Assembly: GCA_965541585.1 (NCBI GenBank)
Contig: CBEUCH010000009.1
Span: 64,001-128,000, forward strand
DNA: 64,000 bases
Direction: 5' to 3'
Source: an uncultured bacterium
GTDB lineage: Bacteria > Zixibacteria > MSB-5A5 > UBA10806
Shown here: piece after piece, positions 1,629 through 64,000 of the stretch
Position numbering within the stretch: position 1 is the first letter of the stretch
Layout of the letters: each line of letters begins with the position of its first letter
Translations under genes and position numbers: made by a program
The notes under the pieces: generated by a model
Databases searched by the model: none
What the model was told of the DNA's origin: nothing
Seen by the model: the letters and a program-made list of their open reading frames with translations, nothing else

Positions 1629-1865
1629 AAACTGCCCCTTTATGGTTTCCGGTTGGTTGTAACCGTATTTTTGTACTCAAACAACCGCCGTATGCGTGCT
1701 GGGCCAAATATAATAGATAACATTGTTGTTTTTCAAGAATATTCGCACTCAAAATGACCAAATGAATCCCCTTGAATTCTTTTCTAAGAATTTGTATCTT
1801 GCCGCCGCAACGGGATTAGTTTGTCGTAGCGGTTACTTAAAGCGGCTTACTGATATGGAGGAGCA

Positions 1866-3229: not shown

Positions 3230-4476
3230 TGTATGAGGAGCTGAAAGAAGCTGATCCGGAAATCTACCAGGCCATACAAAACGAAATAAATCGTCAGCAT
3301 GACGGCCTCGAGTTGATAGCCTCGGAAAACTTCGTATCGCTTCCCGTGCTTGAAGCCGCGGGATCGGTGATGACCAACAAATACGCCGAGGGTTACCCCG
3401 CCAAACGCTATTACGGCGGCTGCACCTTCGTGGATCAGGCCGAAGATCTCGCCCGCGACAGGGCGAAGGAGCTTTTCGGCTGCGAGCATGTCAATGTCCA
3501 GCCGCATTCCGGCTCGCAGGCCAACATGGCGGTCTATTTCACGGTTCTGAAACCGGGCGATACGATCATGGGGCTCAACCTCTCCCATGGCGGGCATCTG
3601 ACTCATGGCCACCCTATAAATTTTTCCGGGAAGCTTTATCATGTCGAACCCTATTCGGTCAGCAAGGAGACCGAAACCATCGATTATGACGAGCTGATGA
3701 AACGCGCCAGGGAGGTCAAACCGAAACTTATCATGGCCGGCGCGTCAGCCTATCCTCGTATACTGGATTTTGAAGCCTTCAGGAAGGTCTGCGATGAAGT
3801 CGACGCATGTCTTGTCGTGGATATCGCCCATATCGCCGGACTGGTGGCGACCGGTTTGCATCCATCGCCGATTCCTTATGCTGATTTCGTCACCAGCACC
3901 ACCCACAAAACGCTTCGCGGACCGAGGGGTGGCCTTATCATGTGCAAGGAGAAATACGCCAAAGACCTCGATCGCGAAGTCATGCCCGGCATCCAGGGCG
4001 GGCCGCTGATGCATGTGATTGCCGCCAAGGCCGTGGCTTTCAAAGAAGCACTGAAGCCTGAATTCAAAGATTACCAGAAACGGATTATCGATAACGCCAA
4101 AACGCTGGCGCAAACGCTTGCCGATGAGGGCTTTCATGTAGTTTCCGGCGGGACGGATACACACCTCATGCTGATATCATTCATCGGGCAGGGGATGACC
4201 GGCAAGCAGGTGGAAAAAGCGCTTGAGAAAGCTGCTATCACGGTCAATAAAAATACAGTGCCGTTCGATCCGGAAAAGCCGTTCGTGACTTCCGGCATCA
4301 GGATCGGCACGCCTGCCGTAACCACCCGCGGCATGGGCGCCGATGAAATGATGCAGATTGGCAGGATGATCTCCCGCGTCATCAAGAACCGGAAGGACGA
4401 GGATCTGATCGCCGAAGTCCGCAAAGAGGTCTCCGCCATCTGTGAGAGATTTCCGCTTTATAGGGATTTACAGTAG
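3229..4476 (+). CDS. glyA: Serine hydroxymethyltransferase
   Basis: [36 protein letters not shown] motifs. Confidence 0.98.
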
Positions 4477-4503
4477 CCTAAAAATATCGTTACGTGATGT
4501 CGG

Positions 4504-4612
4504 TCCTACGGATCCGTAGGAAAGTTACTTCCAACACCTGGCGTTTAATCGTCAGAAGTAACTTCTGACGCCACATGTTATTGTAGAGGTCGGACATGGT
4601 TCGACCTTTTTT
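4504..4612. repeat. Cluster of three palindromes (REP-like); the last doubles as the glyA terminator
   Basis: Perfect 18-bp palindrome TCCTACGGATCCGTAGGA (4504-4521); CGTCAGAAGT-A-ACTTCTGACG (4550-4570); AGGTCGGAC-ATG-GTTCGACCT followed by a T-run (4587-4612). Confidence 0.7.
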
Positions 4613-4697
4613 GTTTCGTATGTGCAGACAGTTTTCTCATTCCCATTGCACCGGCTCCCTGCATTTATTATTATTCTGAATAGAAAGGAGTATCCAG

Positions 4698-5003
4698 ATG
4701 CTGGCAATATTCTCGACGTTTCCAACGGGCAAGAGCGAATCTTTGGGAAAAGACGTGGCGGAGGTTATCAAACTGATAGATGAATCCGGTCTCGATTACC
4801 AGACCACCGCCATGGGCACCATTGTAGAGGGTGAATGGGACGAGGTCATGGGGCTTATCAAGAGCTGCCACCACAAGCTTCGCGAGAATTCCAGACGGGT
4901 TTACACTAAGATCAACATCGACGATAGGCAAGGCGCTACCGACCGCCTGAAGGGCAAGGTCGCCGATGTCGAGAAAATCCTGGGCCGCGAGGTAAGGAAA
5001 TGA
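4698..5003 (+). CDS. MTH1187/YkoF-family thiamine-binding-like protein
   Basis: SGLDYQTTAMGTIVEGEWDEV...RVYTKINIDDR pattern; SD AAGGAG. Confidence 0.9.
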   Translation: MLAIFSTFPTGKSESLGKDVAEVIKLIDESGLDYQTTAMGTIVEGEWDEVMGLIKSCHHKLRENSRRVYTKINIDDRQGATDRLKGKVADVEKILGREVRK

Positions 5004-5035
5004 AAAAACACGGCGTTATCCATCTGACCTGCATG

Positions 5036-5118
5036 GGGTGGCATGCTTTATCCGAAGGATTAAGCATGCGCCGGCCTTTTACCATAACATGCTCAGGCTT
5101 CGCCAGAGCATGCCACCC
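5036..5118. repeat. Inverted doublet of REP-like hairpins
   Basis: GGGTGGCATGCTTTATCCGAAGGATTAAGCATG (5036-5068, +) and GGGTGGCATGCTCTGGCGAAGCCTGAGCATG (5088-5118, -) share a GGGTGG foot, CATGCT/AGCATG stem and CGAAG loop. Confidence 0.7.
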
Positions 5119-5151
5119 GACCGAGTACTTTATGATAAACGAGGTGAGGAA

Positions 5152-5499
5152 ATAGAGAAACTTATCGTCATTTACGTAACCTGCGGATCGGATGAGGAGG
5201 CGGAAAAGCTTTCCGATGGCCTTTTGAGCAATCGTCTCGCCGCCTGTGTCAATATTGCGGATGTCAAATCGGTCTTTGAGTGGAAAGGCAAGATTGAAAA
5301 AGAAAACGAACGCCTGCTTATCATTAAATCTATACGCTCGAATTTTGATAAGATCGAAAAATATGTAAGGGCTAACCACTCATACGAGTGCCCGGAGATA
5401 ATAGCAATGGACATCACAGCCGCATCGGAGAAATACGCCTCCTGGGTAAGATCGGCCTGCCGGCCAGGAGAGAATATCGAGGATAGCAAGGAAGGATAA
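5152..5499 (+). CDS. cutA: Divalent-cation tolerance protein CutA (start uncertain, possibly ATA)
   Basis: VIYVTC, RLAACVN, SVFEWKGKIE, HSYECPEII motifs; homology begins near 5152, just after SD GAGGTG. Confidence 0.9.
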   Translation: MEKLIVIYVTCGSDEEAEKLSDGLLSNRLAACVNIADVKSVFEWKGKIEKENERLLIIKSIRSNFDKIEKYVRANHSYECPEIIAMDITAASEKYASWVRSACRPGENIEDSKEG

Positions 5500-5919
5500 G
5501 TGGAAAGCAAAAAAACTTCTGATGGATATCTTGTCAGATGCGATATAGGTGATGAGGTTATGTCGACCTTAACCAGCTTCGCAGCTGAAAATAAAATATC
5601 GTCGGGCACGGTCATCGGTATCGGCGCCCTCAAGGATATCGTCCTGGGATATTTCGACCTGGCCAAAAAAGAGTATCTGCGAAAAGAGTTTAACGGTATC
5701 TACGAGTTGTTGAGCCTTTCCGGAAATTTCGCGAAATTAAATTCGGAGACCATGCTTCATTGCCATGCCGTAATCTCGGATGCCGATTACTCGGTAACCG
5801 GCGGCCACCTGTTCAGCGGCGTGATAGCCATAACGGGCGAGTTCTATATCAGGCCTGCAGATACTGAGATCAACCGTGAACTCGATAAATTCACCGGCTT
5901 GAATCTAATAAAACTCTAA
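5500..5919 (+). CDS. PPC/DUF296 domain putative DNA-binding protein
   Basis: GIGAL, ELLSLSGN, HCHAVISD, GGHL motifs; GTG start after SD GGAAGG. Confidence 0.9.
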   Translation: MESKKTSDGYLVRCDIGDEVMSTLTSFAAENKISSGTVIGIGALKDIVLGYFDLAKKEYLRKEFNGIYELLSLSGNFAKLNSETMLHCHAVISDADYSVTGGHLFSGVIAITGEFYIRPADTEINRELDKFTGLNLIKL

Positions 5920-6680
5920 TGGGAATTATCACCATCGCCACCGATTTCGGCCATTTCGATGGCTATACGGCCGCCATAAAAGGAGTCATCAAAACCATCG
6001 CTCCGGAAGCCGAAATAGTCGACGTTACCGATGATCTTGCGGGAATCCTGAAAGCTTCCCTGGTGCTCATGAGATATTATCCATATTATCCGGCTGGGAC
6101 GGTTCATCTCGTGATCGTCGATCCGACCGTCGGGTCCGAAAGAAAAGCGCTTATCGGGCAGTCTGAAAATCAATATTTTGTCGGGCCGGATAACGGCCTT
6201 TTCAGCAGGGTGATCGCAGGAAATCCTGATTCTAAATGGTGGTCTGTGGATATTTCGTCTCTGCCACGTCCGGCAACGTCCACTACTTTTCATGGACGAG
6301 ACATATTCGCCCCCGCAGCCGCCCTGCTTTCAATAAACCGGGATCCGGATACTATTGGGGAAAAAACTAAACGACCACTTATGCTTGAAATTCCGCAGCC
6401 GGTGGATCGCCATAATGTTATCGAAGGTGAAATAATCGATATTGACAATTTCGGAAATCTTGTTACAAATATAAGTTCGGATATGTTTCAGCAAAGAATG
6501 AAGATTACTCTGGCTGACAGGGAGCCGATTCCATTTGTAAGGACATTTTTCGATGTTCCGCCGCAGAGTCCCCTGGCGTATATTGGAAGCCTTGGATATC
6601 TTGAAATCGCAGTCAACCTCGGCCGTGCCGATAGCTACTTCGATATCGGTATCGGCGGGAAAGTCACGGTGACCGGTTGA
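5919..6680 (+). CDS. SAM hydroxide adenosyltransferase (DUF62 / chlorinase-fluorinase family)
   Basis: ITIATDFG, VIVDPTVGSER, GPDNG, STTFHGRDIFAP, DNFGN, LEIAVN motifs. Confidence 0.92.
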   Translation: MGIITIATDFGHFDGYTAAIKGVIKTIAPEAEIVDVTDDLAGILKASLVLMRYYPYYPAGTVHLVIVDPTVGSERKALIGQSENQYFVGPDNGLFSRVIAGNPDSKWWSVDISSLPRPATSTTFHGRDIFAPAAALLSINRDPDTIGEKTKRPLMLEIPQPVDRHNVIEGEIIDIDNFGNLVTNISSDMFQQRMKITLADREPIPFVRTFFDVPPQSPLAYIGSLGYLEIAVNLGRADSYFDIGIGGKVTVTG

Positions 6681-22305: not shown

Positions 22306-24357
22306 ATGAAAAAACATCTTTTATGGATGCTAATCCTTTCGCTGCTCTGTATATGGACAGTTGCCGGGGCAGATACGCCTGGTAACCAGGCGCCTCCTGA
22401 TGAGATCGAGAAGGAAAAACTCTATGAGCAGCAAAAGCTTGCGTTAGAGACAGAACCGGCAGAAGAGGAAGCCAGGCGGGTGGCCGAAAAGATAAGGCTG
22501 ACCGAGGAAATGAATCTGACGCCCGAGCAGGCGGAAGCCCTTAAAGAAAGCCGATTTCTCGAGGCCAATCCCGGCTACAAGGATGAACTCGATGATCCGC
22601 CCACCATTCTGGTTCAGGGGGACGTTTGCTCAGATCCTTTCATAATTCCCGAGAGCTTTCCGTATTCTCATAGCGACAATACCTGTGATTATACCAATCA
22701 GTGCGATATCGCATTCTCGGACAACAGCGATGTCATTTATCAGTTGGATATAACCACTACGATCGACTTAACGGTCTCTTTGTGCGGATCCTCGTATGAT
22801 ACCAAATTAGCCATATATACTCCCACCTGCTGTTCCGGCGATCAGGATTATTGGCAATACAACGATGATTTCTGCAGCCTGCAGTCGGAAATCACCGCTA
22901 CATTTACTCCGGCCACCTACTATATCGTGGTCGACGGGTTCGGTACCAATTGCGGGGCCTACACTCTGAATATTACCGAATACGTGATACCCACCGGCCG
23001 TTGCTGCTATGGCGATCCGTATAATCCGGACTGCGTTGACAACATAATCGAGGCTGACTGCACCACTCAGTATTCTGGAGTATGGACCGAGGGGCTGGAT
23101 TGCGGAACACCATGCCCTGTACCAACCGACTGCAGCAACGCCATCCAGGTTATTCTGCCGCCGCCACCCTTGACCTGGCCTTACGTTGATGCCAATCAAA
23201 CAACGTGTGGCAGAGGCCACAGCTACGATGATGCCACCTGCCTCGAGCCTTACTACGATAATGGTGAGGACATAATCTATGAGATAACGGTCACGGAAGA
23301 AGTAACCGTTGGCATTTATCTTACCTCCAATACGACCTGGACAGGTATGGCAATTGGCACCTCCTGTCCTCCGGGACCCGGCTGTCTGGCCCTGTCAAAG
23401 AGCTCCGGTAGTGATGAAACGATTGAAGGTCTTACACTTGCCACCGGCACATACTACCTCATGATAGATACCTGGTCATCGCCGGACTGTATTGATAACT
23501 ACACTCTAACTATCGATGAATACGTATTACCCACCGGTCGTTGTTGCTATGGCGATCCGTATAATCCGGACTGCGTCGACAACGTAACCGAGGATGATTG
23601 CCTCGCTGGGTATTCCGGAACCTGGACTGAGGGACTGGATTGTGGTACTCCTTGCCCGATTCCGCCGGCCAACGACGATTGCGAGAACGCCGAACTGGTT
23701 GCGGTGCCCTCCTCCACGCAGGGTAATACCGACCTTGCAAATGGAGAGACACTCCCGTTCTGCGGCACCAGCGATGGCGCGCCAGGGGTCTGGTATAGAG
23801 TTATCGGCACCGGAAACACCATGACCGCCACGACATGCAATCCCTATACCGACTTTGATACTAAGCTCAGAGTGTTCTGCCATACTTGCGAAGATCCTTA
23901 CTGCGTTGGCGGTAATGACGATACGTCTGGTGCCCCGCCCGAGTGCGATCTTAACGGTTTGAACCGCAAGTCTACAGTGGTCTGGTGCTCCGAAGTCGGC
24001 ACCGAGTACCTGATTCAGGTTTTTGGATTCTCATCCTATACAGGCAATTTCCAACTGGATGTCTTCGACGATGGAACACCATGCCAGGATCCGCCCTTAT
24101 GTGCTCCCCCGACCGGCGCCTGCTGTGTAGATATGGTCTGCGTTGAGACCAACACCTTTGAGGAATGTTCTGTCCTTGGTGGTTTCTGGTACGAAGGGGA
24201 AGACTGCACAACTTTCGAATGCCCGGAGCCTCCGAACATCCCCACGCTTTCCGAATGGGGTATGATTATCTTTACACTGCTCTTGCTGACAGCCGGCACC
24301 ATCGCTGTCATTCGGAGACGTAATACCGTTTCTGCAAAAGAGGCTGCCCGAAGCTGA
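22306..24357 (+). CDS. Secreted Cys-rich protein with PPC-like domains and IPTL-CTERM sorting signal
   Basis: Signal peptide; three PPC-like domains (YDTKLAIY...TYYIVVDG; TYYLMID; FDTKLRVF...EYLIQV); C-terminal IPTLSEWG, TM helix and RRR. Confidence 0.88.
   Translation: MKKHLLWMLILSLLCIWTVAGADTPGNQAPPDEIEKEKLYEQQKLALETEPAEEEARRVAEKIRLTEEMNLTPEQAEALKESRFLEANPGYKDELDDPPTILVQGDVCSDPFIIPESFPYSHSDNTCDYTNQCDIAFSDNSDVIYQLDITTTIDLTVSLCGSSYDTKLAIYTPTCCSGDQDYWQYNDDFCSLQSEITATFTPATYYIVVDGFGTNCGAYTLNITEYVIPTGRCCYGDPYNPDCVDNIIEADCTTQYSGVWTEGLDCGTPCPVPTDCSNAIQVILPPPPLTWPYVDANQTTCGRGHSYDDATCLEPYYDNGEDIIYEITVTEEVTVGIYLTSNTTWTGMAIGTSCPPGPGCLALSKSSGSDETIEGLTLATGTYYLMIDTWSSPDCIDNYTLTIDEYVLPTGRCCYGDPYNPDCVDNVTEDDCLAGYSGTWTEGLDCGTPCPIPPANDDCENAELVAVPSSTQGNTDLANGETLPFCGTSDGAPGVWYRVIGTGNTMTATTCNPYTDFDTKLRVFCHTCEDPYCVGGNDDTSGAPPECDLNGLNRKSTVVWCSEVGTEYLIQVFGFSSYTGNFQLDVFDDGTPCQDPPLCAPPTGACCVDMVCVETNTFEECSVLGGFWYEGEDCTTFECPEPPNIPTLSEWGMIIFTLLLLTAGTIAVIRRRNTVSAKEAARS
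22978..23657 (+). repeat. Intragenic ~140-bp direct repeat (22978-23117 and 23518-23657) encoding a Cys-rich module
   Basis: EYVxPTGRCCYGDPYNPDCVDN...WTEGLDCGTPCP repeated at a 540-bp offset with high DNA identity. Confidence 0.9.
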
Positions 24358-31926: not shown

Positions 31927-34620
31927 ATGAATCAGAGAGAGTTTGAAGGCAACACCCGTTCATTCGTTCCCATATCCAACGGGACCATAATCTTCCACTA
32001 CAAGGTCATTAAGAAGATCGGCGCCGGTGGCATGGGCGAAGTGTATCTGGCCGAAGACACCAGGCTTGATCGTAAGGTCGCACTCAAATTTTTACCGCTC
32101 CATCTATGTCCGGATGAAGATTACCACATACGATTCAAAAGGGAAGCCCAAGCCGTTGCTAAATTAAATCACCCTAATATAATTACAGTCTATGAGGTTT
32201 CAGAATATCAAGGACGCCCATTCTTCGCGATGGAGTTGGTCGAGGGTCAATCATTACGAGAATTATCCTCAAGTAAAGGATTAAGCTGCGAGAGAATTAT
32301 TGAACTTGCCATTCAGATATGCGATGGTCTAAGCGCCGCTCATGAGAAAGAAATAGTTCATCGAGATATTAAACCGTCCAACATCGTTATCGACGCTTAT
32401 GGCCGTCCTAAAATTCTTGATTTTGGTTTGGCGGCAATTCGGGGCCGTGAACAAATTACCAAGACCGGATCTACTCTGGGTACAATAAGATACATGTCAC
32501 CAGAGCAGGTAGAGGGAAGAAAAGTTGACAGTAGGTCAGACCTGTTTTCACTCGGTACCGTTCTTTATGAAATGATCGCTGGCCGCACCCCATTTGAGCG
32601 CGACAATGAGGCCGCCACCCTAAAGTCCATTGGTCAAGACAATCCTGAGCCGCTGGGAAGGTACAAGTCCGATATACCTGATGAACTTCAACGCACAGTT
32701 TCCAAGTTGCTTGAAAAAGATCCGTCAATGAGATATCAGAGCGCCGCAGGTGTTATTAGTGATTTGAAACCACTTATTGCATCGACCAGGAGCTCCATGA
32801 CTTTACCCTCGACCAAACAGAAGAACAGATGGCCTCTTGCGGTCGGTGGGCTGGTAATTATCGTAGGTTTACTGGTAGCAGGTGTAAAATACTGGCCCGA
32901 CGGTGATACTGGGCATCCCGGTGCGCCAACTCAAGGGCGGATAATGTTGGCAGTACTTCCATTTGAAAACCTGGGAGCGCCGGAGGATGAATACTTCGCC
33001 GATGGAATCACTGATGAAATCACCTCAAGAGTCGCGGTTCTTAATGGTCTCGGCGTAATTGCGAGGACGAGTATCTTGCAATACAAGGGCACAAAAAAGC
33101 GAATTGCGGAAATTGGCTCTGAACTGAATGTTGACTACATTCTTGAGGGGACGATTCGCTGGGACAAGTCGGGCAATATCGACAGAGTCCGTATCACACC
33201 GCAATTGATCCGGGTGTCGGATGAAACGCATCTCTGGGTGGACAATATTCAAAAAGACCTCTCGCAGATTTTTGAAGTGCAAGAAGAAATTGCCACGAGT
33301 ATCGCCGGAGCGCTAAACGTAGCCTTAATAACCGGAGAGCGAGAGACGCTTGTTTATCGACCGACCGAAAACCTCGAAGCCTATGACTATTATCTTAGAG
33401 CGAGAAACTATGGCGACCATGACGATTTTCTCGCGGCGATTGAATTGCTCGATAAGGCCACCGAGCTGGACTCGACTTTTGCATTGGCCTTCGCCTTGAA
33501 ATCTCAATCACATTCAAATTATGCCTTTGGAGAGGAATTGGGCGCTTCAGAGCATTCCGGGCCGGCGCGACTCGCTTATCAAAGGGCTTTTGAAATTCAA
33601 CCTGACTTGGCTGAGGCACATCTGGCCCGCGGGACTTATTTGAATTTAATTGAAAGAGATTACTCGAGCGCTCTCGAAGAATTTGAACTTGCTCAGCAAG
33701 GACAAGTTGACGAAGCGCAGGTTCTAAATGCAATCTCAATAGTCAAGATGCGACAGGGCAAATGGCATGAGGCAATAGCTATCGCCAGGCAGGTCAACAA
33801 GCTTGACCCTCGATCATTTCGGGCTGGGTTAGTGGCGATCCAGGCAAACTTGTTCGTTCATCAGTACGACGAGGCACTGGAAGCCGTTGAGCGAGCAATC
33901 TCTTTAGCTCCTGACGAAGTTGGAATCTATTCCATAAAAGCACAGATTCAGATTAACATGGGAGCGGATGTCGAGCAGATTCAAGAGACCCTTTCCGAAT
34001 GGTCACGCCGTACCACTTTAGAGGGATGGGCATTCGAGTCAGAAGGACCGATGTTTTTCGGACTCTTTCGCTTATGGAATCAGTCGATTGACGTGGATGC
34101 AAAGATCTCTGTTATGAAGTCAAGATTACATGACTATCAGAATCCAGATCAGTATTTCTACACGGGGCTTCTGTATCAACTTAAGGGGGACGAAGTTTCT
34201 TCGTACGTCTATCTGGATTCGGCGTGTATCCTGATCAAAAATCGTGTCGCGAAGGCCCGGGGCGACACTACCGGTCGATTTGAAAATTTCGATCTGGATC
34301 ACAGCATTTATAATTTTCTTGCGCTGGCTTATTCACAGACAAATAGACATAAGCTCGCTATTGATCACGCACAGTTGGCCATGGAAACCATGACTACCGA
34401 TGACTGCCACTGGTGAGGACCTGGTTCGGTCATGGTCATGGCCTATGTTCAGTTGAATGCCGGGAATATTGATGTGGCGCTTGATTATCTGGAAGAGGTC
34501 TTGTCTATTCCGTCTTCCTATTCGACGGCCTGGGTTGAGCTGGACCCTCTATGGGCGCCGGCACGCAATCACGTTCGCTACGAAGAAATAATCTTGAAGT
34601 ACAAGGGTATTTCCTTCTGA
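31927..34620 (+). CDS. Membrane Ser/Thr protein kinase with TolB-N-like and TPR domains; in-frame UGA at 34414-34416 (candidate selenocysteine 830; 897 aa if read through)
   Basis: GAGGMGEV, VALK, HRDIKPSN, DFG, YMSPEQ; TM helix; LAVLPFENL...YFADGITDEI; TPRs. The frame continues after TGA into ...LDPLWAPARNHVRYEEII. The kinase call is firm; the readthrough is inferred. Confidence 0.85.
34417..34452 (+). promoter_or_regulatory. Candidate bacterial SECIS element
   Basis: Hairpin GGUCAU-GGUC-AUGGCC (34428-34443) starting 11 nt after the UGA; loop begins with G; weak lower stem CUGG/UCAG. Confidence 0.55.
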
Positions 34621-34688: not shown

Positions 34689-34817
34689 GCCCAGCCTGCT
34701 CCGGCGCTCCGGGAAATAGATCCCCTAACTTAAAGCGGACATATTCGCTATTAATAGGAACAATTCGCACTTGAGTTGCAGTTAAGTTAATCAGAATTGA
34801 CAACGGGGAGTGCAACA

Positions 34818-35867
34818 ATGAGAAAGCAGCTTTTGATCCTAAATCTAATCGCCTTGTTTGCAAGCGGTTGTGGCGATGATTCAACCGCGCCGGGGCAGGG
34901 TGTAATTGTAGATGATGAGATTTACTCCGGCGGGGTGCCGCGCGACGGGATACCAGCCTTGAACGATCCGGTATTCATAGAGGCAAATCAGGCCATATAT
35001 TTATCCAGTGCGGATCTTGTCCTGGGCGTAGTCATCGAGGGTGAAGCCAGGGCTTACCCTATCAACATCATGAATTATCATGAGATCGTCAACGATCACT
35101 TTCAGAGTCGCCCGGTCTGTGTCACCTATTGTCCCTTGACCGGTTCAGGGGTGGTATTCGCAAGTGTCCTGGACGGGCGGGAGGTTTCTTATGGAGTCTC
35201 CGGGCTTCTATTCAGGAATAATCTGATCCCATACGACAGAACCTCGTCCAGCCTCTATTCGCAGATGTATGTCAGCGGTATCAGAGGAGACTACCGCGAT
35301 TTCGATTGGCTATTGTATCCCTCTCTGCGATGCACATGGGGATTCTGGAAGAATCATTACCCGGATACGAAGGTAATGTCTCCGAATACCGGCCATTCCC
35401 GGGACTACACCTCGAGTCCTTATGGCAATTATTCTGTGACTTACTCGACACTTTTCCCGGTCAGGTTTCCGGATAGCAGATACCATCCCAAGCATCTGAC
35501 TCTGGGAGTGCAATTCGGTGGTCAGGCCATGGCGTTCCCATCGACCGAGCTTTTCAATGAGAAAGTGGTGAATATCGAACTTGCCGGTATGCCCCTGGTG
35601 ATTGTCTATGACTCCAACGGCCGGTATATGGGCGTTTATTCACGTCTGGTGAGCGGCGACATTCTGAGTTTCTCGTTGATCAGAAACAATAGTTCTAAGA
35701 CGACAATGACCGACGATCAAACTGGCTCTACCTGGTCGGCTACGGGGCTGGCGACTGACGGCTCATTAGCGGGGGAGAAGCTGGAACAACTCCCGTTCTA
35801 TACAGCCTACTGGTTCGCCTGGCACGATTTCTACCCGGAGACCGGGGTTTACACCGCCGAAGAATGA
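34818..35867 (+). CDS. DUF3179 family lipoprotein
   Basis: Lipobox ASGC; SGGVPRDGIPALNDP, ARAYP, HEIVND, VTYCPLTGSG, GVSGLL, YWFAWHDFYPET. Confidence 0.9.
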   Translation: MRKQLLILNLIALFASGCGDDSTAPGQGVIVDDEIYSGGVPRDGIPALNDPVFIEANQAIYLSSADLVLGVVIEGEARAYPINIMNYHEIVNDHFQSRPVCVTYCPLTGSGVVFASVLDGREVSYGVSGLLFRNNLIPYDRTSSSLYSQMYVSGIRGDYRDFDWLLYPSLRCTWGFWKNHYPDTKVMSPNTGHSRDYTSSPYGNYSVTYSTLFPVRFPDSRYHPKHLTLGVQFGGQAMAFPSTELFNEKVVNIELAGMPLVIVYDSNGRYMGVYSRLVSGDILSFSLIRNNSSKTTMTDDQTGSTWSATGLATDGSLAGEKLEQLPFYTAYWFAWHDFYPETGVYTAEE

Positions 35868-37604: not shown

Positions 37605-37609
37605 ACCCC

Positions 37610-37728
37610 TGTCTTCGGGGCGAGGCGAAAATCCTCGACCGGCGGTGAGAGCCCGCGAGTCCCGCAAAAGTGGGATTGAGCCGGTGGAATTCCGGTGCCG
37701 ACGGTGAAAGTCCGGATGGGAGAAGACA
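37610..37728 (+). ncRNA. FMN riboswitch (RFN element)
   Basis: CTTCGGGGCGAGGCGAAAATCCTCGACCGGCGGT...AGCCCGCGAG...GAGCCGGTGGAATTCCGGTGCCGACGGTGAAAGTCCGGATGGGAGAAG matches the RFN consensus; upstream of ribD. Confidence 0.97.
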
Positions 37729-37756
37729 ACTGATGGTGATGATATACCATCTGTAT

Positions 37757-37778
37757 CCCCCGAAGTCGGGGTTTTTTT
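37757..37778 (+). terminator. Riboswitch expression-platform terminator
   Basis: CCCCGA-AG-TCGGGG-TTTTTTT; 5' arm CCCCGAAG is complementary to aptamer CTTCGGGG (37613-37620). Confidence 0.85.
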
Positions 37779-38853
37779 GTTGGCCGACTTTGAAAAATTA
37801 ATGGCAGAAGCCTTTGAACTGGCGGAGAAAGGGCTGGGGTATACTAGTCCCAATCCCGCTGTTGGCGCCATGCTCTTCAAACGCGATCGGATTATTGCCA
37901 AAGGCTACCACAGGCGCGCCGGCCTGCCTCATGCTGAAATAGAGGTTATCAGGACAGCCGATAAGAATGCCCGCGGCTCAACTCTAATAGTTACTCTCGA
38001 ACCCTGTCCACATCACGGTAAAACTCCGCCCTGTACCGATGCGATTATCGCTGCTGGTATAAAAAAAGTCGTGGGGCCCATAACTGATAAGAATCCTCAA
38101 GTTTGCGGCAGGGGATATCGAAAGCTTCGCCAGGCAGGTATCGAGGTGGTAAGCGGCGTTCTGAAAAAGCAGGCCCGGAGATTTTACGAGCCTTATTTTA
38201 AATTCATCACCACCGGCCTGCCATTCGTGACACTGAAATTCGCTCAGAGTATCGATGGCAGGATCGCTACCCGAAATGGCAATTCACGCTGGATATCCTC
38301 GCCGGAATCGCTTAAACTATCACATAAGATAAGGGCTGTAACCGACTCTGTGTTAATCGGTAATGAAACTCTTGGTATGGACAATCCACAGCTTACCACC
38401 AGACTTGCGAAAGGCCCCAATCCTATCAGGATTTTGCTTTCCGCCTCCGGACGAGTAGCCAGACGACGAACCATGTTTACCAACGGGGCGGCGCCAACAT
38501 ATGTCGCCACTGCAACGAATTCGAATTTGAAGCAAAGCGGAAATTTGAAAATCATCAGGGTCAAAAATTCGAAATCCGGCCTTGATTTGAAAGACCTTCT
38601 GTCGAAGCTCGGCAAGATGGGCATAGTCACTCTTCTGGTCGAGGGCGGATCGCAGGTATTGACATCGTTTATCAAACAAAGGATGGCGGATAGGGTTATG
38701 GTCTTTATCGCTCCCATCATGATAGGCGACGGTGTCCCGGCTATCGGGAACCTGGGGGTGGCGAACATTAAAGATTCTATAGCTCTGGGTGAAATGGAAT
38801 GGTTCAAATCGGGACCAGATCTGTTCGTAAGCGGGCGACCGATTTGGGGATAA
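37777..38853 (+). CDS. ribD: Bifunctional deaminase/reductase RibD (start uncertain)
   Basis: SPNPAVGA, HAE, LEPCPHHGKTPPC, SIDGRIA, LLVEGG. Confidence 0.96.
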   Translation: MLADFEKLMAEAFELAEKGLGYTSPNPAVGAMLFKRDRIIAKGYHRRAGLPHAEIEVIRTADKNARGSTLIVTLEPCPHHGKTPPCTDAIIAAGIKKVVGPITDKNPQVCGRGYRKLRQAGIEVVSGVLKKQARRFYEPYFKFITTGLPFVTLKFAQSIDGRIATRNGNSRWISSPESLKLSHKIRAVTDSVLIGNETLGMDNPQLTTRLAKGPNPIRILLSASGRVARRRTMFTNGAAPTYVATATNSNLKQSGNLKIIRVKNSKSGLDLKDLLSKLGKMGIVTLLVEGGSQVLTSFIKQRMADRVMVFIAPIMIGDGVPAIGNLGVANIKDSIALGEMEWFKSGPDLFVSGRPIWG

Positions 38854-38854
38854 G

Positions 38855-39490
38855 ATGTTCACCGGTATAATACAGGAAATCGGACGGGTGAAATCGATTG
38901 CCGGGAGAGGCGGCAATCGGGCTATCGCCGTGGATTCAAGCAAACTGATCAGCAAACTCGATATCGGTTTTTCCATCGCGATCAATGGCGTCTGCCTGAC
39001 CGTGACGGAGCTTTCCGGGGAAAAATTCATAGTCGAGGCCATCGGGGAGACTCTTAAACGCACCAATCTCGGCCAATTAGGCACTGGTTCTCCTGTAAAC
39101 ATGGAAGTGCCATTACGGCCGGATGACTTACTTCATGGCCATCTGGTACAGGGGCATATCGATTGTACGGGAATTATCTCCCGAATCTCCCGGGCTGACG
39201 GAAGTGTGATCTTTGCCATAGACTATCCCGCTGAATACGGAAAGTTCCTGATCGAAAAAGGTTCCATAGCGGTCGACGGGATCAGCCTGACAACAGTGGA
39301 ATTGTCAGACAGCCATTTCACTGTTGCGTTGATACCTCATACGATAGAAAACACCAATTTTAAATACAGGAGGTCGGGCGAAACTGTAAATCTGGAGTTC
39401 GATATGATAGCCAAGTATGTCGAGAGAATGGTTATGCCCGGGAATAGAAAATTAACGGTAAACTTTTTAAAGGAGCATGGATTCGGTTGA
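38855..39490 (+). CDS. ribE: Riboflavin synthase (alpha chain)
   Basis: MFTGII, SIAINGVCLTV, GHLVQGHID, KGSIAVDGISLT. Confidence 0.97.
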   Translation: MFTGIIQEIGRVKSIAGRGGNRAIAVDSSKLISKLDIGFSIAINGVCLTVTELSGEKFIVEAIGETLKRTNLGQLGTGSPVNMEVPLRPDDLLHGHLVQGHIDCTGIISRISRADGSVIFAIDYPAEYGKFLIEKGSIAVDGISLTTVELSDSHFTVALIPHTIENTNFKYRRSGETVNLEFDMIAKYVERMVMPGNRKLTVNFLKEHGFG

Positions 39491-39516
39491 GATTTTTTAA
39501 CCGGCCATGAGAATAA

Positions 39517-40749
39517 ATGTCTGAACTTTCTACCATCGAAGAAGCAATTGAGTGGATAAAGCAGGGCCGCATCGTGATCGTAGTGGATGATGAAAACCGC
39601 GAAAACGAAGGCGATCTGGTCCTGGCGGCGGAATTCATCACTCCCGAAAAGGTGAATTTCCTTACGAAGTATGCCCGCGGTTTGATTTGTGTGCCCATGC
39701 CCGGGGAGCGATTGGAGGAACTCAAGCTGACCCCCATGGTGCAATTCAACACCGCGCTGCACGGGACGAGATTCACGGTTTCGGTTGATGCAGTGAAGAA
39801 CACGACCACCGGCATTTCGGCTCAGGACCGAGCAATGACGATAGAGACCCTGGCCGACGACGGTGCGCAACCCGAGGATCTGGGGCGACCGGGCCATATA
39901 TTTCCGATCGAGGCCAGACCGGGGGGAGTTCTCTCCCGCGCCGGCCATACCGAAGCCACCGTTGATCTCTGTCGCCTGGCCGGGCTTAAACCGTATGGCG
40001 TCCTCTCCGAAATACTCGACGATGACGGTAAGATGGCTCGTTTGCCTCTGCTTTTGCAGATGGCCGGAGATATGGATCTGAAAATCATAAGCGTCGAGGA
40101 TCTCATAAAATACCGTCGTCGAAATGAGAAGCTGGTTAAGATGGTCACCACGGTCGATCTGCCTACCGAACATGGGAAGTTCAAATTGCATCTATACAAG
40201 AGTTCCATTGATGACCACCATCATCTGGCTCTGGAGAAGGGCGATGTCCGGGGCAAGCAGGATGTTATGGTCAGGGTGCACTCGTCCTGTCTCACCGGTG
40301 ATGTCTTCGGATCATGCCGGTGCGATTGTGGCGAGCAGCTTACCGCCTCCATGGAATTGATCGACAATGAGGGATTGGGTGTAGTGTTATATATGCGGCA
40401 GGAGGGCAGAGGCATCGGTCTGGCCAAGAAAATACTGGCATACAAACTTCAGGATGAAGGACGAGATACCGTCGAGGCCAACGTCGAACTTGGATTTCCG
40501 GCGGATCTGAGAGATTACGGAGTGGGGGCGCAGATTCTCGCCGATCTCGGCCTGACAACGATTCGGCTTCTCACAAATAACCCCAGGAAGGTGGTAGGAC
40601 TGCAAGCCTTTGATCTAAAGGTTACGGGACGTATACCGTTACAGACGACACCGAACAAGCATAATGTCCGCTACCTTGAAACCAAACGGGATAAGCTGGG
40701 ACACCTGATAGATAGCACCAGCGCAGAGGATTTAAAGGAATGCAAATAA
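39517..40749 (+). CDS. ribBA: Bifunctional DHBP synthase / GTP cyclohydrolase II
   Basis: VVDDENRENEGD, RAGHTEA, RVHSSCLTGD...CDC, QEGRGIGL, LLTNNP. Confidence 0.97.
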   Translation: MSELSTIEEAIEWIKQGRIVIVVDDENRENEGDLVLAAEFITPEKVNFLTKYARGLICVPMPGERLEELKLTPMVQFNTALHGTRFTVSVDAVKNTTTGISAQDRAMTIETLADDGAQPEDLGRPGHIFPIEARPGGVLSRAGHTEATVDLCRLAGLKPYGVLSEILDDDGKMARLPLLLQMAGDMDLKIISVEDLIKYRRRNEKLVKMVTTVDLPTEHGKFKLHLYKSSIDDHHHLALEKGDVRGKQDVMVRVHSSCLTGDVFGSCRCDCGEQLTASMELIDNEGLGVVLYMRQEGRGIGLAKKILAYKLQDEGRDTVEANVELGFPADLRDYGVGAQILADLGLTTIRLLTNNPRKVVGLQAFDLKVTGRIPLQTTPNKHNVRYLETKRDKLGHLIDSTSAEDLKECK

Positions 40750-40759
40750 GGAGTAAGAA

Positions 40760-41224
40760 ATGACCAAAGAGATTCACGGAGAGCTGAACGCAACAGGGAA
40801 GAAGTTTGCTATCCTTGTTTCGCGATTCAACGATTTTCTTACGGCAAGAATCAAGGACGGCGCTATTGATTGCCTTGTAAGGCATGGGGCTTCCGACAAC
40901 GATATCGCCGTGGTCTGGGTACCCGGATCTTTCGAGTTGCCCCCTGTGGCCGCACGGTTGGCTGAGAATGGCCAATATGATGCCATCATTTGCCTGGGGG
41001 CCTTGATCCGCGGCCAGACTCCTCATTTCGATTATATAGCATCTGAGGTGGCCAAGGGGATCGGGAGAATTGGTCTTGAAAAAAACATCCCGGTAATCTT
41101 CGGTGTGGTCACCGCAGATACGCTGGAACAGGCCATCGAAAGGGCCGGTGCCAAGCAAGGGAATAAGGGATTTCAGGCGGCGTTATCCGCTATAGAGATG
41201 ATCGATCTTTACGGCAGGCTTTGA
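40760..41224 (+). CDS. ribH: 6,7-dimethyl-8-ribityllumazine synthase
   Basis: [29 protein letters not shown]. Confidence 0.97.
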
Positions 41225-48098: not shown

Positions 48099-50483
48099 AT
48101 GAACGCCAGAGACATAATCAGACGATATTGGCCATATTTTTATTTTGTGCTTCTTACCGTCGCAGTATTCGCTGAATTTATATTTTCCGATAAGATGCTC
48201 TTTGGTTCCGATACAGTCGAGGCCGGATTATTTTTCCGCGGATTTTATGCCGAATTCGTAAAATCCTATCACAGGATTCCGTTATGGAATCCTTATATCT
48301 TCGGGGGTCTGCCCTTCGTAGATGCCATGCACGGTGATACGTTTTATCCGCTGGCGATTTTACAGTTCATAATGCCTCTGCACAAGGCCCTGGGTTATAA
48401 GCTCGTTCTGGCAGTCCTGATGGCAGGCATTTTTGCCTACCTTTACTTAAGAGAAATGAAAATGTCCGTCTGGGCCGCAGTCTTCGGGGCTACCGCATAC
48501 ATGATATCGGGATTCATGGTATCGCTGGTTTATGCGGGCCACGACGGCAGGATGTACGTCAGCGGCATACTGCCACTGCTTCTATATACTCTGGAGATAG
48601 GTTTCCGGCGACGGCGGTTTCTTTGGTGGTGGCCATTTTCGGCGGCTTTCGGGCTTTTGATTCTGGCCAATCACCCTCAGTTCTCCTACTTTGCCATGTG
48701 GTGTGTGGGCGCCTATTTCGTTCTTAAACTCGTTTTCTTATACCGCGAGTCCGGGAAAATCAGTTCAGTATTAATCCCCGGCTTTGGATTCATCGCTTCC
48801 ATGCTTTTTGGCATTGCATTGGGCCTGATTCAGATCTGGCCGGCGCAGGATTACGTCCGCAAATATTCGCCCCGCTCAGGTGAGGGCAGAGGTTACCAGT
48901 ATTCTGCCTCATGGTCGCTGCATGCCGAGGAGGCCATCTCCCAGGTGGTTCCCGGGTTTGCCGGGTTAAGCAATCTGCAGAATCATCCGCCGCTAACCCG
49001 TGAACATACTTACTGGGGAAAAAACTATTTCAAAATCAACAGCGAATACGCCGGCATGGTGGCACTGTTTTTGGGACTGGCCGGTCTGTTCCTCTACAAA
49101 GATAGATATTCATATTTCTTTCTGGGGACAGCCATTTTCGCGCTGCTATACGCGCTCGGCGATTCGGGTTTGATATTCAGACTTTTCTATCATGTCGTGC
49201 CTTTCGTCAAGCAATTCCGAGCGCCTTCCACCATAATGTTCTTATTCAGTTTTTCTATTGCATATCTGGCAGCAAGAACCATTGATACACTTCAAAAGAC
49301 GAAGAAAACTCCTCGTGCCGCTAAGATCTTTCGCTGGCTTTTAATCCTTGCGGGAGTCTACCTTCTTTCGGGCCTGATTTTCATCCGGGCAGGATCGGGA
49401 ATTATGAAGATTTACACATCGATATTCTATTCGAATATGGAGACCGGTCAGTGGAATAGCCTGCAGGCCAATCTATCGAATATCTCGTCAGGATTGATCA
49501 TTGGCGCCCTGCTTATCGGGGCCGTAGCGGTGACCTTCTGGGCATCTCTTAGAAAAAAAGTTCATTTCGGAGTTATGGCCTCGGCTTTGCTGGTCCTGGT
49601 GATGATAGATAGCTGGATCATGGAGGATATGAAATTTATCAGGTCAGTTGACCACAAACCCTATTTTGCCACGCCGGCCGGGATACCGTTCTTGCAGGAG
49701 CAAGATGGGCCTTTCAGATCATTTGTGCTACCCGGCACAATGCCCAATCAGAACAGCCTGGCGATGTTCGGTCTCCAACAGGTGGCCGGGTATCATGGCA
49801 ATCAGCTTCGATGGTATAACCAATTTCTCGGCGATAGATTCGCGAATCTTCTCGGGAATCCTTCCGGGCTGGCCCTGGCAAATACCAGGTATATTATGAT
49901 ACGACAGGAGGTAAACCATCCCAATCTGGAGAAGGTGAATAGCGTCGGTGGAATCAATATCTATCAGAATAATTTCGTTATCCCTCGCGCCAGAATCGTG
50001 TATGACTACATTGTGGTTCCCGATCCGGATTCAGCTCTATCTCTAATCCTCGAGCCGGATTTTGATGTTGTCAAAAGAATTGTCATCGACCGACGGCCCT
50101 CAGGCGAAATCAAGGCCCCGGATTCGACACAGGATGATTTCGTACAGATTCTCGATTCACCACCCGATCGCATAAGGGTCAAAGCGCATCTCTCGGTACC
50201 CGGTTTCCTGGCGCTTCAGGATAACTGGTATCCATACTGGAAGGCATTTGAGGGCGATATCGAATATCCTGTTTATAGATCGGATTTCACCTTTATGGCC
50301 GTCGAGCTTCCCGCCGGAGAGCATTTATTGGAGTTCAGAGTTGAAAATCCTAATTACATATATGCCAGGATGGTGTCTGAGATCTCCTGGATTATATTGA
50401 TTATCGGTATTACAGCGGGTCTTATATCAAAATCCGTTCGTCGGCGGAGGGGAGATTCGAAACCGGCTCCTTCCGGCAAATAA
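48099..50483 (+). CDS. YfhO-like GT-C membrane protein
   Basis: PLWNPYIFGGLP, FYP, HPQF, YSASWSL, FRAP, NWYPYWKA, LPAGEH. Confidence 0.85.
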   Translation: MNARDIIRRYWPYFYFVLLTVAVFAEFIFSDKMLFGSDTVEAGLFFRGFYAEFVKSYHRIPLWNPYIFGGLPFVDAMHGDTFYPLAILQFIMPLHKALGYKLVLAVLMAGIFAYLYLREMKMSVWAAVFGATAYMISGFMVSLVYAGHDGRMYVSGILPLLLYTLEIGFRRRRFLWWWPFSAAFGLLILANHPQFSYFAMWCVGAYFVLKLVFLYRESGKISSVLIPGFGFIASMLFGIALGLIQIWPAQDYVRKYSPRSGEGRGYQYSASWSLHAEEAISQVVPGFAGLSNLQNHPPLTREHTYWGKNYFKINSEYAGMVALFLGLAGLFLYKDRYSYFFLGTAIFALLYALGDSGLIFRLFYHVVPFVKQFRAPSTIMFLFSFSIAYLAARTIDTLQKTKKTPRAAKIFRWLLILAGVYLLSGLIFIRAGSGIMKIYTSIFYSNMETGQWNSLQANLSNISSGLIIGALLIGAVAVTFWASLRKKVHFGVMASALLVLVMIDSWIMEDMKFIRSVDHKPYFATPAGIPFLQEQDGPFRSFVLPGTMPNQNSLAMFGLQQVAGYHGNQLRWYNQFLGDRFANLLGNPSGLALANTRYIMIRQEVNHPNLEKVNSVGGINIYQNNFVIPRARIVYDYIVVPDPDSALSLILEPDFDVVKRIVIDRRPSGEIKAPDSTQDDFVQILDSPPDRIRVKAHLSVPGFLALQDNWYPYWKAFEGDIEYPVYRSDFTFMAVELPAGEHLLEFRVENPNYIYARMVSEISWIILIIGITAGLISKSVRRRRGDSKPAPSGK

Positions 50484-61987: not shown

Positions 61988-62035
61988 AAACTTTCTTGGG
62001 AATGCTGTTTTGAGGGTGTGGAGATTAGCTCAATT

Positions 62036-62995
62036 ATGAACAGGATCGGTCTGTTAACGTCGGGTGGAGATGCCCCGGGCATGAATCCCTGTATCAGGGC
62101 GGTAGTCTATGAGGCTGAAAAGAGCGGGACTAAAATTGTGGCTTTCAGAAGAGGCTACGCCGGGATTCTCGACAATGATTGTTTCGTGATGGAGGTAAAA
62201 GATACCAGCGGCATCATTCAACGCGGGGGGACAGTTCTGCGATCATCCCGTTGCGAGGAGTTTAAATACGAGGAGGCACAGAAGGAGGCCATAAAGGTCT
62301 TGATAGAAAATGGCTGCGACGGTCTCATTACCATAGGTGGTGACGGCACCTTAAGAGGCGCGGCCGCTATTGCCGATCGGGGAGTAAGCGTGGTTGGCGT
62401 GCCAGCGACCATCGATAATGACATTTTTGGAACCGATATGACATTGGGAACCGATACGGCTCTGAACAACATCGTGGAAGTTATAGATAAGATAAAGGAC
62501 ACGGCATCATCACACGAAAGAACCTTCATCATCGAGGTGATGGGGCGGGGCTCCGGATATCTGGCGCTCGTTTCCGCCATCGCCACCGGAGCCGAGGCCG
62601 CCCTGATACCCGAGGTGGAATTCGATCTGGAAAAGATTGCAAAACGCCTCCTTGAGAGGTATAAAAGGAATAAGGCGGCTAATATAATTGTTGTGGCGGA
62701 GGGTGCTTCCACGGCTTATCAAATAGGGCGCAAATTATCTAAAATTGCTCGTATCGAGTCGAAAATCACTGTACTGGGGCATCTACAGCGGGGGGGCTCG
62801 CCATCCCCATTCGACAGACTGCTCGGGACAAGACTCGGCTCGGCGGCCGTTTCGGAACTGTTGCAGAATAAATCCAATTGCATGGTCGGCCTGGTTAAGG
62901 GAAAGGTCGAGACAACACCGCTCGATGATGTGCTCAAGAAAAGAAAACCGCTTAATGAGAAATTCATACGGCTTGCAGAAATGCTGGGGAATTAG
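62036..62995 (+). CDS. pfkA: ATP-dependent 6-phosphofructokinase
   Basis: TSGGDAPGMN, GGDGT, PATIDND, EVMGR, LGHLQRGG; start ATG 62036 or GTG 62018. Confidence 0.95.
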   Translation: MNRIGLLTSGGDAPGMNPCIRAVVYEAEKSGTKIVAFRRGYAGILDNDCFVMEVKDTSGIIQRGGTVLRSSRCEEFKYEEAQKEAIKVLIENGCDGLITIGGDGTLRGAAAIADRGVSVVGVPATIDNDIFGTDMTLGTDTALNNIVEVIDKIKDTASSHERTFIIEVMGRGSGYLALVSAIATGAEAALIPEVEFDLEKIAKRLLERYKRNKAANIIVVAEGASTAYQIGRKLSKIARIESKITVLGHLQRGGSPSPFDRLLGTRLGSAAVSELLQNKSNCMVGLVKGKVETTPLDDVLKKRKPLNEKFIRLAEMLGN

Positions 62996-63009: not shown

Positions 63010-64000
63010 ATGCCTGAGAGGATCGGCTTATTAACCGGAGGTGGAGATTGTCCGGGTCTGAACGCTGTAATCAGAGCCATAGTCAGGAAGTCGGTGGATA
63101 TATACAATTACAGGGTTGTCGGTTTTATCGGCGGCTGGCGCGGTATCCTGGAAATGGAATACGCAACGCTAAACAGAAACAAAATATCCGGAATCCTCCA
63201 CCGGGGCGGAACTATCATCAAGACCTCTCGTACCAATCCATTTAGAGAAGAAGATGGAGTAAAGCGCATCAAGGAGAATTTCGAGAAATTGAAGCTCAGC
63301 GCTTTAATTGCCATAGGCGGCGAGGACACGATGGGTGTGGCAAAAGCCCTTGATGAAGGAGGAATTCCGATAGTGGGAGTGCCAAAGACAATCGATAACG
63401 ATCTTTCCGGCACTGATTATACTTTCGGATACGATACCGCGATAAATGTCGCCATGGAGGCCATAGACCGTGTGCACACCACCGCCGAATCGCATAACCG
63501 CGTAATGGTCGTCGAAGTCATGGGGCGTCATACCGGGTGGATCGCTCTGGGAGCGGGACTGGCGGGCGGCGCTGATGTCATCTTAATCCCCGAAAAGCCG
63601 TTCGATATCGAAAGAGTCTGCGAGATTATCACCATGCGCCATGGCAAGGGACGGGATTTTTCTATAGTCGTGGTTGCAGAGGGCGCGAAATTTAAAACCG
63701 AATCGAGCGGGGAAGAAAGGATGATCCTTCGAAGAAAGGAAAAGGATGCCTTCGGACATGTATATCTTGGAGGTATCGGCAATGTCCTGGCCGAAGAAAT
63801 AGAAAAAAGAACCGGTTTCGAATCGAGGGTTGTCATACTCGGCCATATCCAGCGCGGCGGATCACCCACGGCCTTCGACCGTATTCTGGCGACCCGTTAT
63901 GGTATAGCAGCTATCGATATGGTCCATAAAAAAGATTTCGGAAAAATGGCGGCCTTGAAGGGGACGGATATTGTGGCCATCCCGATATCGGAGGCTGTTA
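63010..64000 (+). CDS. Second PfkA-family phosphofructokinase, group III, PPi-type signature (runs off window; not in ORF track)
   Basis: Hand translation MPERIGLLTGGGDCPGLNAVIRA...GGEDT...PKTIDND...TTAESH...EVMGRH...LGHIQRGG. Confidence 0.93.
   Translation, partial: MPERIGLLTGGGDCPGLNAVIRAIVRKSVDIYNYRVVGFIGGWRGILEMEYATLNRNKISGILHRGGTIIKTSRTNPFREEDGVKRIKENFEKLKLSALIAIGGEDTMGVAKALDEGGIPIVGVPKTIDNDLSGTDYTFGYDTAINVAMEAIDRVHTTAESHNRVMVVEVMGRHTGWIALGAGLAGGADVILIPEKPFDIERVCEIITMRHGKGRDFSIVVVAEGAKFKTESSGEERMILRRKEKDAFGHVYLGGIGNVLAEEIEKRTGFESRVVILGHIQRGGSPTAFDRILATRYGIAAIDMVHKKDFGKMAALKGTDIVAIPISEAV

Follow-up and report, generated by a model that had tools for sequence, protein, structure and literature searches.

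The elongation factor SelB of Escherichia coli contacts the loop G and U, and also the bulged U, of the selenocysteine (Sec) insertion sequence (SECIS) of the gene fdhF. In this gene (NC_000913.3) the TGA is followed by 11 nt and then by the hairpin GGTTGCA-GGTC-TGCACC. The general model for bacterial elements of this kind (bSECIS, bSECISearch) is given in the legend to Figure 2 of a 2026 review (PMC13188914) as an apical loop of 3–9 nt on an upper stem of 4–16 bp, with a G at the first or second loop position, usually followed by G or U, a distance of 16–37 nt between the UGA and the loop, and a minimum free energy not above -7.5 kcal/mol. Here we describe a hairpin of this type in a 64-kb stretch of DNA (the window: positions 64,001 to 128,000 of contig CBEUCH010000009.1, from an uncultured bacterium of the Zixibacteria), located just downstream of a TGA that interrupts the gene of a Ser/Thr protein kinase with TPR repeats. 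Its 16 nt (34428–34443) are probably a bacterial SECIS of the E. coli fdhF type, and the most likely product of the gene is a kinase that contains selenium. In the comparison with homologous genes we found a conserved TGA, a conserved reading frame downstream, selection on the hairpin at the nucleotide level, a fixed spacing and the likeness to fdhF. The spacer length and the GGUC loop are the same in fdhF and in the kinase gene, both hairpins start with GGU and end with CC, and both have a short stem of six pairs and a similar stability. On the other hand, the common form of the kinase hairpin has no bulged U, as had been remarked in a preliminary description of the site made from the sequence alone (one variant, described below, does have an fdhF-like bulged U). 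Furthermore, it has no conserved lower helix, whereas the fold of fdhF reaches ca. 40 nt, and the host is of the Zixibacteria/FCB-group kind instead of a proteobacterium, with binding of the kinase hairpin by SelB being a prediction. With respect to the bSECIS model as stated in that legend (PMC13188914), the 4-nt loop, the 6-bp stem, the G followed by G and the 17 nt from UGA to loop are all inside the ranges, and always at their short, near end.

The kinase ORF (open reading frame) is located on the forward strand (31927–34416) and consists of 829 codons (31927–34413, with matches to Pfam Pkinase and several TPR families) closed by a TGA. The Ser/Thr kinase domain covers residues 25–271 (Pfam Pkinase, E 9.6e-53) and is followed by one hydrophobic span at about residues 303–325 (read from the translation) and by a long TPR-rich domain, matched by several Pfam TPR families, that ends in C827-H-W829. 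The in-frame TGA (34414–34416) is the proposed Sec codon, U830, and would complete a C-x-x-U motif; the residues that flank it are C827-H-W-[TGA]-G-P. Behind it the frame stays open for another 67 codons (34417–34617) that would encode the last TPR helices and a C-terminal tail, homologous to the C-terminus of uninterrupted paralogues, up to the real stop codon, again a TGA (34618–34620). A scan of the window for pairs of ORFs joined by a TGA gave the kinase as the sole credible case. The 11-nt spacer, GGACCTGGTTC (34417–34427), comprises the Gly-Pro codons and then variable bases, and is aligned without gaps among the homologues. Next come the 5′ arm GGUCAU (GGTCAT in the DNA, 34428–34433), the apical loop GGUC (34434–34437), of which the GGU is invariant at all ten sites compared (alignment columns 42–44), and the 3′ arm AUGGCC (ATGGCC, 34438–34443). 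The arms were defined by folding and by pair counts across sites, and form six pairs, one of them U-G. The spacer, the stem with its single G-U pair and the loop are in the sequence exactly as the preliminary description had them. The hairpin is present in the minimum-free-energy and centroid structures of both 34414–34452 and 34414–34480, the latter being the segment whose folding had been proposed there as a check.

The position of the TGA is the same in all the relatives of this type that we could find. A word-based protein search with residues 640–897 gave 15 proteins, the window's own included, all of them covering just 74% of the query, and C-[H/Y]-W is the shared end point of the 14 aligned relatives (65–78% identical). 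The closest relatives overall are proteins 57–78% identical to that of the window. A HMMER search with residues 740–897 against 1.84 billion representatives produced 1076 matches at E ≤ 0.001, of which the best 150 were used. The top seven matches stop just before the position of the TGA, and all 22 predicted proteins of the TGA type (again counting the window's own) stop exactly there, after C-[H/Y/Q]-W. At the DNA level, a scan of species-representative genomes detected at least 521 confirmed relatives among 610 pattern matches, mostly in Zixibacteria and other metagenome-assembled genomes (MAGs) of the FCB group, and the analysis went on with the 80 best of these matches, located in 75 loci. 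By tblastn with residues 740–897, 60 sites in 53 of these loci span codon 830 and 22 loci have no alignment there. A TGA is found at codon 830 in nine further sites, in eight loci from eight species-representative genomes, all nine with C-H-W-TGA-G-P. A six-frame pattern scan of 684 kb (77 loci plus the window) detected C-H-W-stop-G-P at ten sites only, the window included. The other 51 sites are paralogues with variable sense codons or a gap at this point, in a context of roughly P-[VI]-S-K-D-A-x-x-G-P, and the hairpin sequence is present in none of them. In a tree of 58 family members (quick maximum-likelihood search, rows below 350 residues dropped) all ten genes with the TGA group in a single clade, with a Shimodaira–Hasegawa-like approximate likelihood ratio (SH-aLRT) support of 98 and end branches of up to 1.27 changes per site. 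Within this orthologous clade codon 830 is TGA in 10/10 members, never TAA, TAG or a sense codon. With such branches in a single clade, the TGA, its partner Cys and the hairpin would have been kept together over a long divergence after one origin.

The kinase/TPR family as a whole is very large (at least 521 relatives) and extends to Zixibacteria, MAGs labelled as Ignavibacteria, Gemmatimonadota, Latescibacterota, KSB1 and others. Several genomes contain three or more kinase/TPR loci each, and the genes are often found in tandem. For example, locus L073 has two TGA-type genes head to tail (1335–3887 and 3896–6619) that are only 33% identical. In locus L047, the TGA-type gene at 3977–6637 is directly preceded by another kinase-TPR gene (1593–3977) whose C-terminus was not aligned and in which no TGA-type site was found.

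The third codon positions indicate that the RNA itself matters. The 16-mer is identical at nine of the ten TGA sites, among proteins that are merely 32–70% identical, and all ten have a hairpin-forming 16-mer after a spacer of 11 nt without insertions or deletions. A SECIS-like hairpin 11 nt behind the UGA, as had been claimed for the window, is therefore found at every TGA site, and its preservation among UGA-bearing homologues, a point on which the preliminary description had staked the claim, favors the hairpin. The common 16-mer occurs once per TGA-bearing locus (eight loci), always at +11, nowhere else in the 77 loci, and once in the window. We looked at the columns of the alignment in which at least nine of the ten genes share an amino acid that has four or more codons (n = 71). 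Codon usage is uniform across the ten genes in just two of these columns, Val +5 (always GTC) and Ala +9 (always GCC), and the two belong to the hairpin. A third hairpin column, Val +7, has a lone GTT against nine GTC, and of the 68 columns outside the hairpin not one is fixed in this way. The suspicion raised by the odd Val-Met-Val-Met-Ala coding, namely that it is constrained by the RNA structure, is thus supported. In addition, the first base of the hairpin falls on a third codon position and is G in 10/10 genes despite the varied amino acid encoded (S, L, L, Q, M, M, Q, Q, V and L). The frequency of G at third positions in the ten genes is 0.23–0.42, with a product of 6e-6. This invariant G pairs with the equally frozen third-position C of the Ala codon GCC. 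Over the ten sites, 96.7% of the stem cells are paired. The separately called ORFs that correspond to the tail have the same signature, with 60 of 61 starting at MVMA and the remaining one at the second Met (68–100% identical to the window's tail, itself counted).

The single deviating sequence, at L073:6425, reads GGTCCAGGTTCTGGCC and has four changes, so that it codes for V-Q-V-L-A and loses two pairs of the original register. It refolds into a stretch of two pairs and another of four with a bulged U between them, at -5.0 kcal/mol versus -5.2 for the common form. Among 20,000 random variants with four substitutions, 4.2% fold as well, and 11 of the 81 with changes at the same four positions do so. 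Being one event, the support that it gives is modest. Taken as a whole, the pattern of frozen codons indicates that the hairpin is under selection at the nucleotide level.

The frame downstream of the TGA evolves as coding sequence. It is open for 64–74 codons at eight of the ten sites; of the two exceptions, one stops after 35 codons and the other leaves its contig after 64. The short tail (L073:3780–3887, ending in TAG) may be naturally shorter, may belong to a copy in decay or may reflect a mistake of assembly. Leaving aside the nine residues encoded by the hairpin, the mean identity of the tail is 40.8%, compared to 35.7% for the 300 residues upstream (45 pairs), and in the closest pair the tail has 30 identical codons, 18 synonymous differences and 20 amino acid changes. 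Gly-Pro is kept after the TGA in 10/10 genes with free third positions (GGA in eight and GGC in two; CCT in four, CCG in three, CCC in two and CCA in one) and is homologous to the G-P of the uninterrupted paralogues. A tail that is conserved like the body of the protein, together with Gly-Pro residues kept as amino acids and shared with uninterrupted paralogues, indicates that translation passes through the TGA and does not restart behind it. The same data bear on the way in which gene callers annotate these loci, i.e., as two genes, 22 truncated kinases and 61 separate tail ORFs. In such a split gene the TGA would be the true end of the kinase, and the conserved ATGs would start an independent peptide of 62 residues, with the GAGGA that overlaps the stop as ribosome-binding site and the 16-mer as the start region. 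TGAGGA, with a Shine-Dalgarno-like GAGG, is indeed present at 10/10 sites and the 16-mer has two in-frame ATGs. However, the element of the variant L073:6425 lacks any ATG, and a start region leaves unexplained the frozen GTC, GTC and GCC codons and the G before them. The Gly-Pro upstream of the ATG, free at its third positions and homologous to a translated G-P in the paralogues, does not fit either. The stop would be TGA in 10/10 genes, never TAA or TAG, although TGA closes no more than 13 of the 36 Pfam-supported ORFs of the window, and the split would fall just before a helix, interrupting a TPR domain that is modelled with confidence as continuous. We consider a split gene very unlikely. 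A pseudogene, in which a chance hairpin lies behind a nonsense mutation or a sequencing error, has a negligible probability: its one favorable point is a folding energy no better than that of shuffled sequences (see below), and the same TGA, hairpin and open frame recur in ten genes from nine assemblies with proteins 32–70% identical, and in dozens of similar metagenome proteins. We regard the chance reading as refuted by the conserved TGA, the frozen codons and the conserved tail.

Returning to recoding of the UGA as Sec by way of the local hairpin, several results weigh against it, some from RNA folding and others from the genomic and family context. The 16-nt hairpin alone is weak (-5.2 kcal/mol), and the -7.5 kcal/mol of the bSECIS model in the Figure 2 legend (PMC13188914) is reached only with flanks that are not conserved (-7.6 over 39 nt, -8.3 over 42 nt). 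The preliminary description had likened the element to fdhF and to the general bacterial model. Spacer and loop do coincide, and of the four criteria in that legend three agree and the energy is borderline. The 39-nt stretch has z = +0.66, with 145 of 200 dinucleotide shuffles folding at least as well, and the 67-nt stretch z = +1.15, with 176 of 200; the z-scores of single sequences over all ten sites range from -1.35 to +1.32, none significant. No pair covaries across the ten sites. Four pairs never vary and the other two are broken only in one variant, so covariation, one of the checks suggested at the outset, is uninformative in an element that is nearly invariant. The z-scores cannot be taken as evidence against function, given that the proven SECIS of fdhF fails the same test (z = +0.10, 103 of 200 shuffles as good), and folding energy was dropped as a criterion for this reason. 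In the same calculation the minimal 17-nt hairpin of fdhF has -4.2 kcal/mol, compared to the -5.2 of the kinase hairpin. The original caution that the hairpin could be due to chance is thus not dispelled by folding energy and is strongly contradicted by the comparison of homologues. A weak lower stem, CUGG (34421–34424) with UCAG (34449–34452), had also been suggested. It forms in the window's own fold and lies outside the conserved element, but over the ten sites only 47.5% of its cells are paired, no better than in slid or shuffled controls, and we discarded it. A permissive Rfam scan of 34380–34520 gave nothing except a chance match to sR28 (E = 6.2).

The remaining folding result is that RNAalifold, applied to the ten sites, prefers a different structure, a long imperfect hairpin of 13 pairs with -11.27 kcal/mol. 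It arises because the C-H-W-UGA-G-P codons (region of 34414–34443; alignment columns 14–50) are partly complementary to the 16-mer. The recoding would then be the same but directed by another fold, in which the 16-mer pairs back onto the Cys-His-Trp-UGA-Gly-Pro codons, the UGA is inside the stem and the 6 variable nucleotides form the loop. Ten of the long-fold pairs are kept in at least nine of the ten sequences, and five of them (the window, L022, L029, L034 and L037) have a structure of this type, entirely or partially, as their single-sequence optimum. However, it shows no covariation either, and the amino acids C-H-W-U-G-P would in any case keep its upstream arm constant. Pair 27–38 is lost in the two sequences with GGC, and the variant L073b loses three pairs. 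Moreover, the invariant C of the Ala codon (column 51) is left unpaired, whereas the local hairpin pairs it with the frozen G and in this way accounts for both. With the UGA in the ribosomal A site the upstream arm is inside the ribosome, so that only the local hairpin could form while the UGA is being decoded. A signal that acts through the long fold is therefore unlikely. The long fold may instead be an alternative resting conformation of the untranslated mRNA, and the two folds may alternate.

Regarding the genomic context, there is no tRNA in the 64-kb window, and SelA, SelB and SelD domains were found in none of the 43 window ORFs scanned. Likewise, none of the 32 neighbor ORFs of the TGA-bearing loci had Sel domains, and no tRNA-Sec appeared in the 60 loci scanned (of 77), which contained only ordinary tRNAs for Gly, Ser and Asp. 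As for the family, no Cys occupies codon 830 in any of the 51 paralogue sites, nor in any of the 140 representatives that span it among the best 150 of the 1076 HMMER matches, where the residues are variable (A 20, F 14, I 12, D 12, etc.). This is unexpected given that, according to the deep-Sep study (PMC12013277), nearly all selenoproteins have Cys homologues. Finally, since all the TGA sites share one origin, the association of TGA and hairpin is, as far as the tree indicates, a single event that has been maintained and not many independent ones, and the evidence lies in its preservation. The lack of visible Sec machinery in window ORFs and tRNAs and in the 60 loci scanned for tRNAs, together with the lack of a Cys form among the sequences aligned, would also suit a readthrough independent of Sec, in which the hairpin stimulates a near-cognate or suppressor tRNA to insert an ordinary amino acid (Trp, Cys, Arg or Gly). 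An ordinary residue, however, predicts a sense codon in some of the ten deeply diverged members, and none has one. In its C-x-x-TGA context, its 11-nt spacing and its GGUC loop the site agrees with the SelB-dependent element of fdhF, and the window gives no sign of TGA reassignment. We find this explanation highly improbable. A changed genetic code, with TGA as Trp or Gly, was also considered and ruled out, because TGA is an ordinary stop here: it ends 13 of the 36 Pfam-supported ORFs of the window, whose genes are intact under table 11. TGA is also the final stop in seven of the nine complete genes of the TGA clade.

If the 16-mer acts as a SECIS, the following events during translation can be proposed. 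The UGA at 34414–34416 would enter the A site with the 11-nt spacer in the mRNA channel and the hairpin at the channel entrance, where the GGU-bearing apical loop would be bound by the C-terminal domains of SelB. This factor would bring Sec-tRNA(Sec), the UGA would be read as Sec, and the 67 codons behind it would be translated. The product would be a membrane-spanning Ser/Thr kinase of 897 residues with C827-H-W-U830 before a helix. At the same time the 16 bases would carry a second message, (x)-Val-Met-Val-Met-Ala, and, both being carried by the same nucleotides, the requirements of the RNA would dictate this peptide. We have modelled residues 470–897 with AlphaFold2 (37-row alignment), obtaining a predicted local distance difference test (pLDDT) score of 89.1 and a predicted template modelling (pTM) score of 0.89. 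The modelled region is an all-helical TPR solenoid, for which the PDB gave only generic TPR superhelices. C827-H-W-U830 (model residues 358–361) is located in the loop that follows helix 339–352, with the U directly before helix 362–375. Since only one hydrophobic span follows the kinase domain, we infer that the TPR domain is outside the cytoplasm, where the CxxU pair would most likely be a redox-, selenium- or metal-reactive site of a sensor domain.

Similar motifs are found in the CxxU redox selenoproteins of bacteria, which belong to families such as the thioredoxin-like, AhpD-like and DsbA-like proteins. Like them, the kinase model has C-x-x-U with the Sec at the N-terminal end of a helix. 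Unlike them, it carries the site in a TPR superhelix instead of a thioredoxin fold, as part of the sensor of a Ser/Thr kinase. The tetrapeptide C-H-W-U itself appears in one sequence of the deep-Sep Data S1 (PMC12013277), in an unrelated protein and context. This is probably a coincidence of four residues. The protein concerned binds an iron-sulfur cluster. With regard to the lack of a Cys form, the precedent is GrdA, the selenoprotein A of glycine reductase, described in the deep-Sep study (PMC12013277) as long thought to be the only selenoprotein without Cys homologues. The kinase resembles it in that no Cys form of the Sec position was found (0/140 from the best 150 of 1076 matches and 0/51). 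The two proteins are unrelated, and in contrast to GrdA there are kinase paralogues without Sec, which have a variable non-Cys residue at this position and also lack the Cys at -3. Since both residues are missing from the non-Sec paralogues, the CxxU site would be an invention of the TGA clade.

Downstream the kinase gene adjoins a gene with a DUF3179 domain (34797–35867, forward strand; Pfam E 2.2e-89) and a lipoprotein-like N-terminus (…LFASGCG). This gene is not a kept neighbor in the other TGA-bearing loci, and no gene neighborhood common to the eight loci was found. Further along the window there is a flavin mononucleotide (FMN) riboswitch on the forward strand (37607–37731; RF00050, 100.6 bits), the only match at gathering level to Rfam in the window. 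Directly 3′ of it is a riboflavin operon (37777–41224) that encodes RibD (deaminase/reductase), a lumazine-binding riboflavin synthase, a fusion of DHBP synthase and GTP cyclohydrolase II, and lumazine synthase. Two adjoining genes of the phosphofructokinase family (62018–62995 and 63010–63999, forward strand) are located at the end, the second one leaving the window. Three long ORFs, at 3–1628 (reverse strand), 22306–24357 and 48099–50483 (both forward), with 542, 683 and 794 residues, had no Pfam match at E ≤ 1e-5.

We have searched for prior descriptions of a selenoprotein with a kinase or TPR domain. None is mentioned in the main text of the 2026 review (PMC13188914), where the word kinase is used only for PSTK, nor in the main text of the BSepDB paper (PMC13326102) and a portion of its supplement that does not include the family Table S2. 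None was found either in the main text or the four supplements of deep-Sep (PMC12013277), including its table of previously reported families. Literature searches on Sec or selenoproteins in combination with Zixibacteria retrieved nothing on Sec use, and those on a selenoprotein protein kinase with in-frame UGA and TPR nothing relevant. The authors of deep-Sep (PMC12013277) indicate that their method may discard selenoproteins that lack Cys homologues, and the family could have been missed until now for this reason. Taking all this into account, the hairpin is probably an element of a known kind, a SECIS, located in an apparently undescribed family of selenoproteins, Ser/Thr kinases with a CxxU-bearing TPR domain. 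Going further, we tentatively propose, as something that may well be the case though we would not yet count on it, that Zixibacteria-like bacteria of the FCB group have undescribed transmembrane Ser/Thr kinases that are obligate Sec proteins, with C-x-W-U in an extracytoplasmic TPR sensor and no Cys form.

If these proposals are correct, the annotation of a widespread gene would be systematically wrong, with a truncated kinase and a "hypothetical protein" of 62 residues in its place, affecting 22 truncated proteins, 61 tail ORFs and nine further species-representative sites. The family would be invisible to the searches for Sec/Cys pairs that are used to discover selenoproteins, and a conserved TGA together with frozen synonymous sites could reveal others without Cys homologues. 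The element would be a textbook case of dual coding, in which a signal of 16 nt fixes the codons of a helix and the peptide Val-Met-Val-Met-Ala while the rest of the protein has diverged to ca. 35% identity. SelB would read essentially one minimal RNA in Proteobacteria and in the FCB group alike. A protein kinase would join the selenoproteins. When Sec is not inserted its sensor domain would be shorter by 67 residues, and the selenium supply or the redox state would directly gate bacterial kinase signalling.

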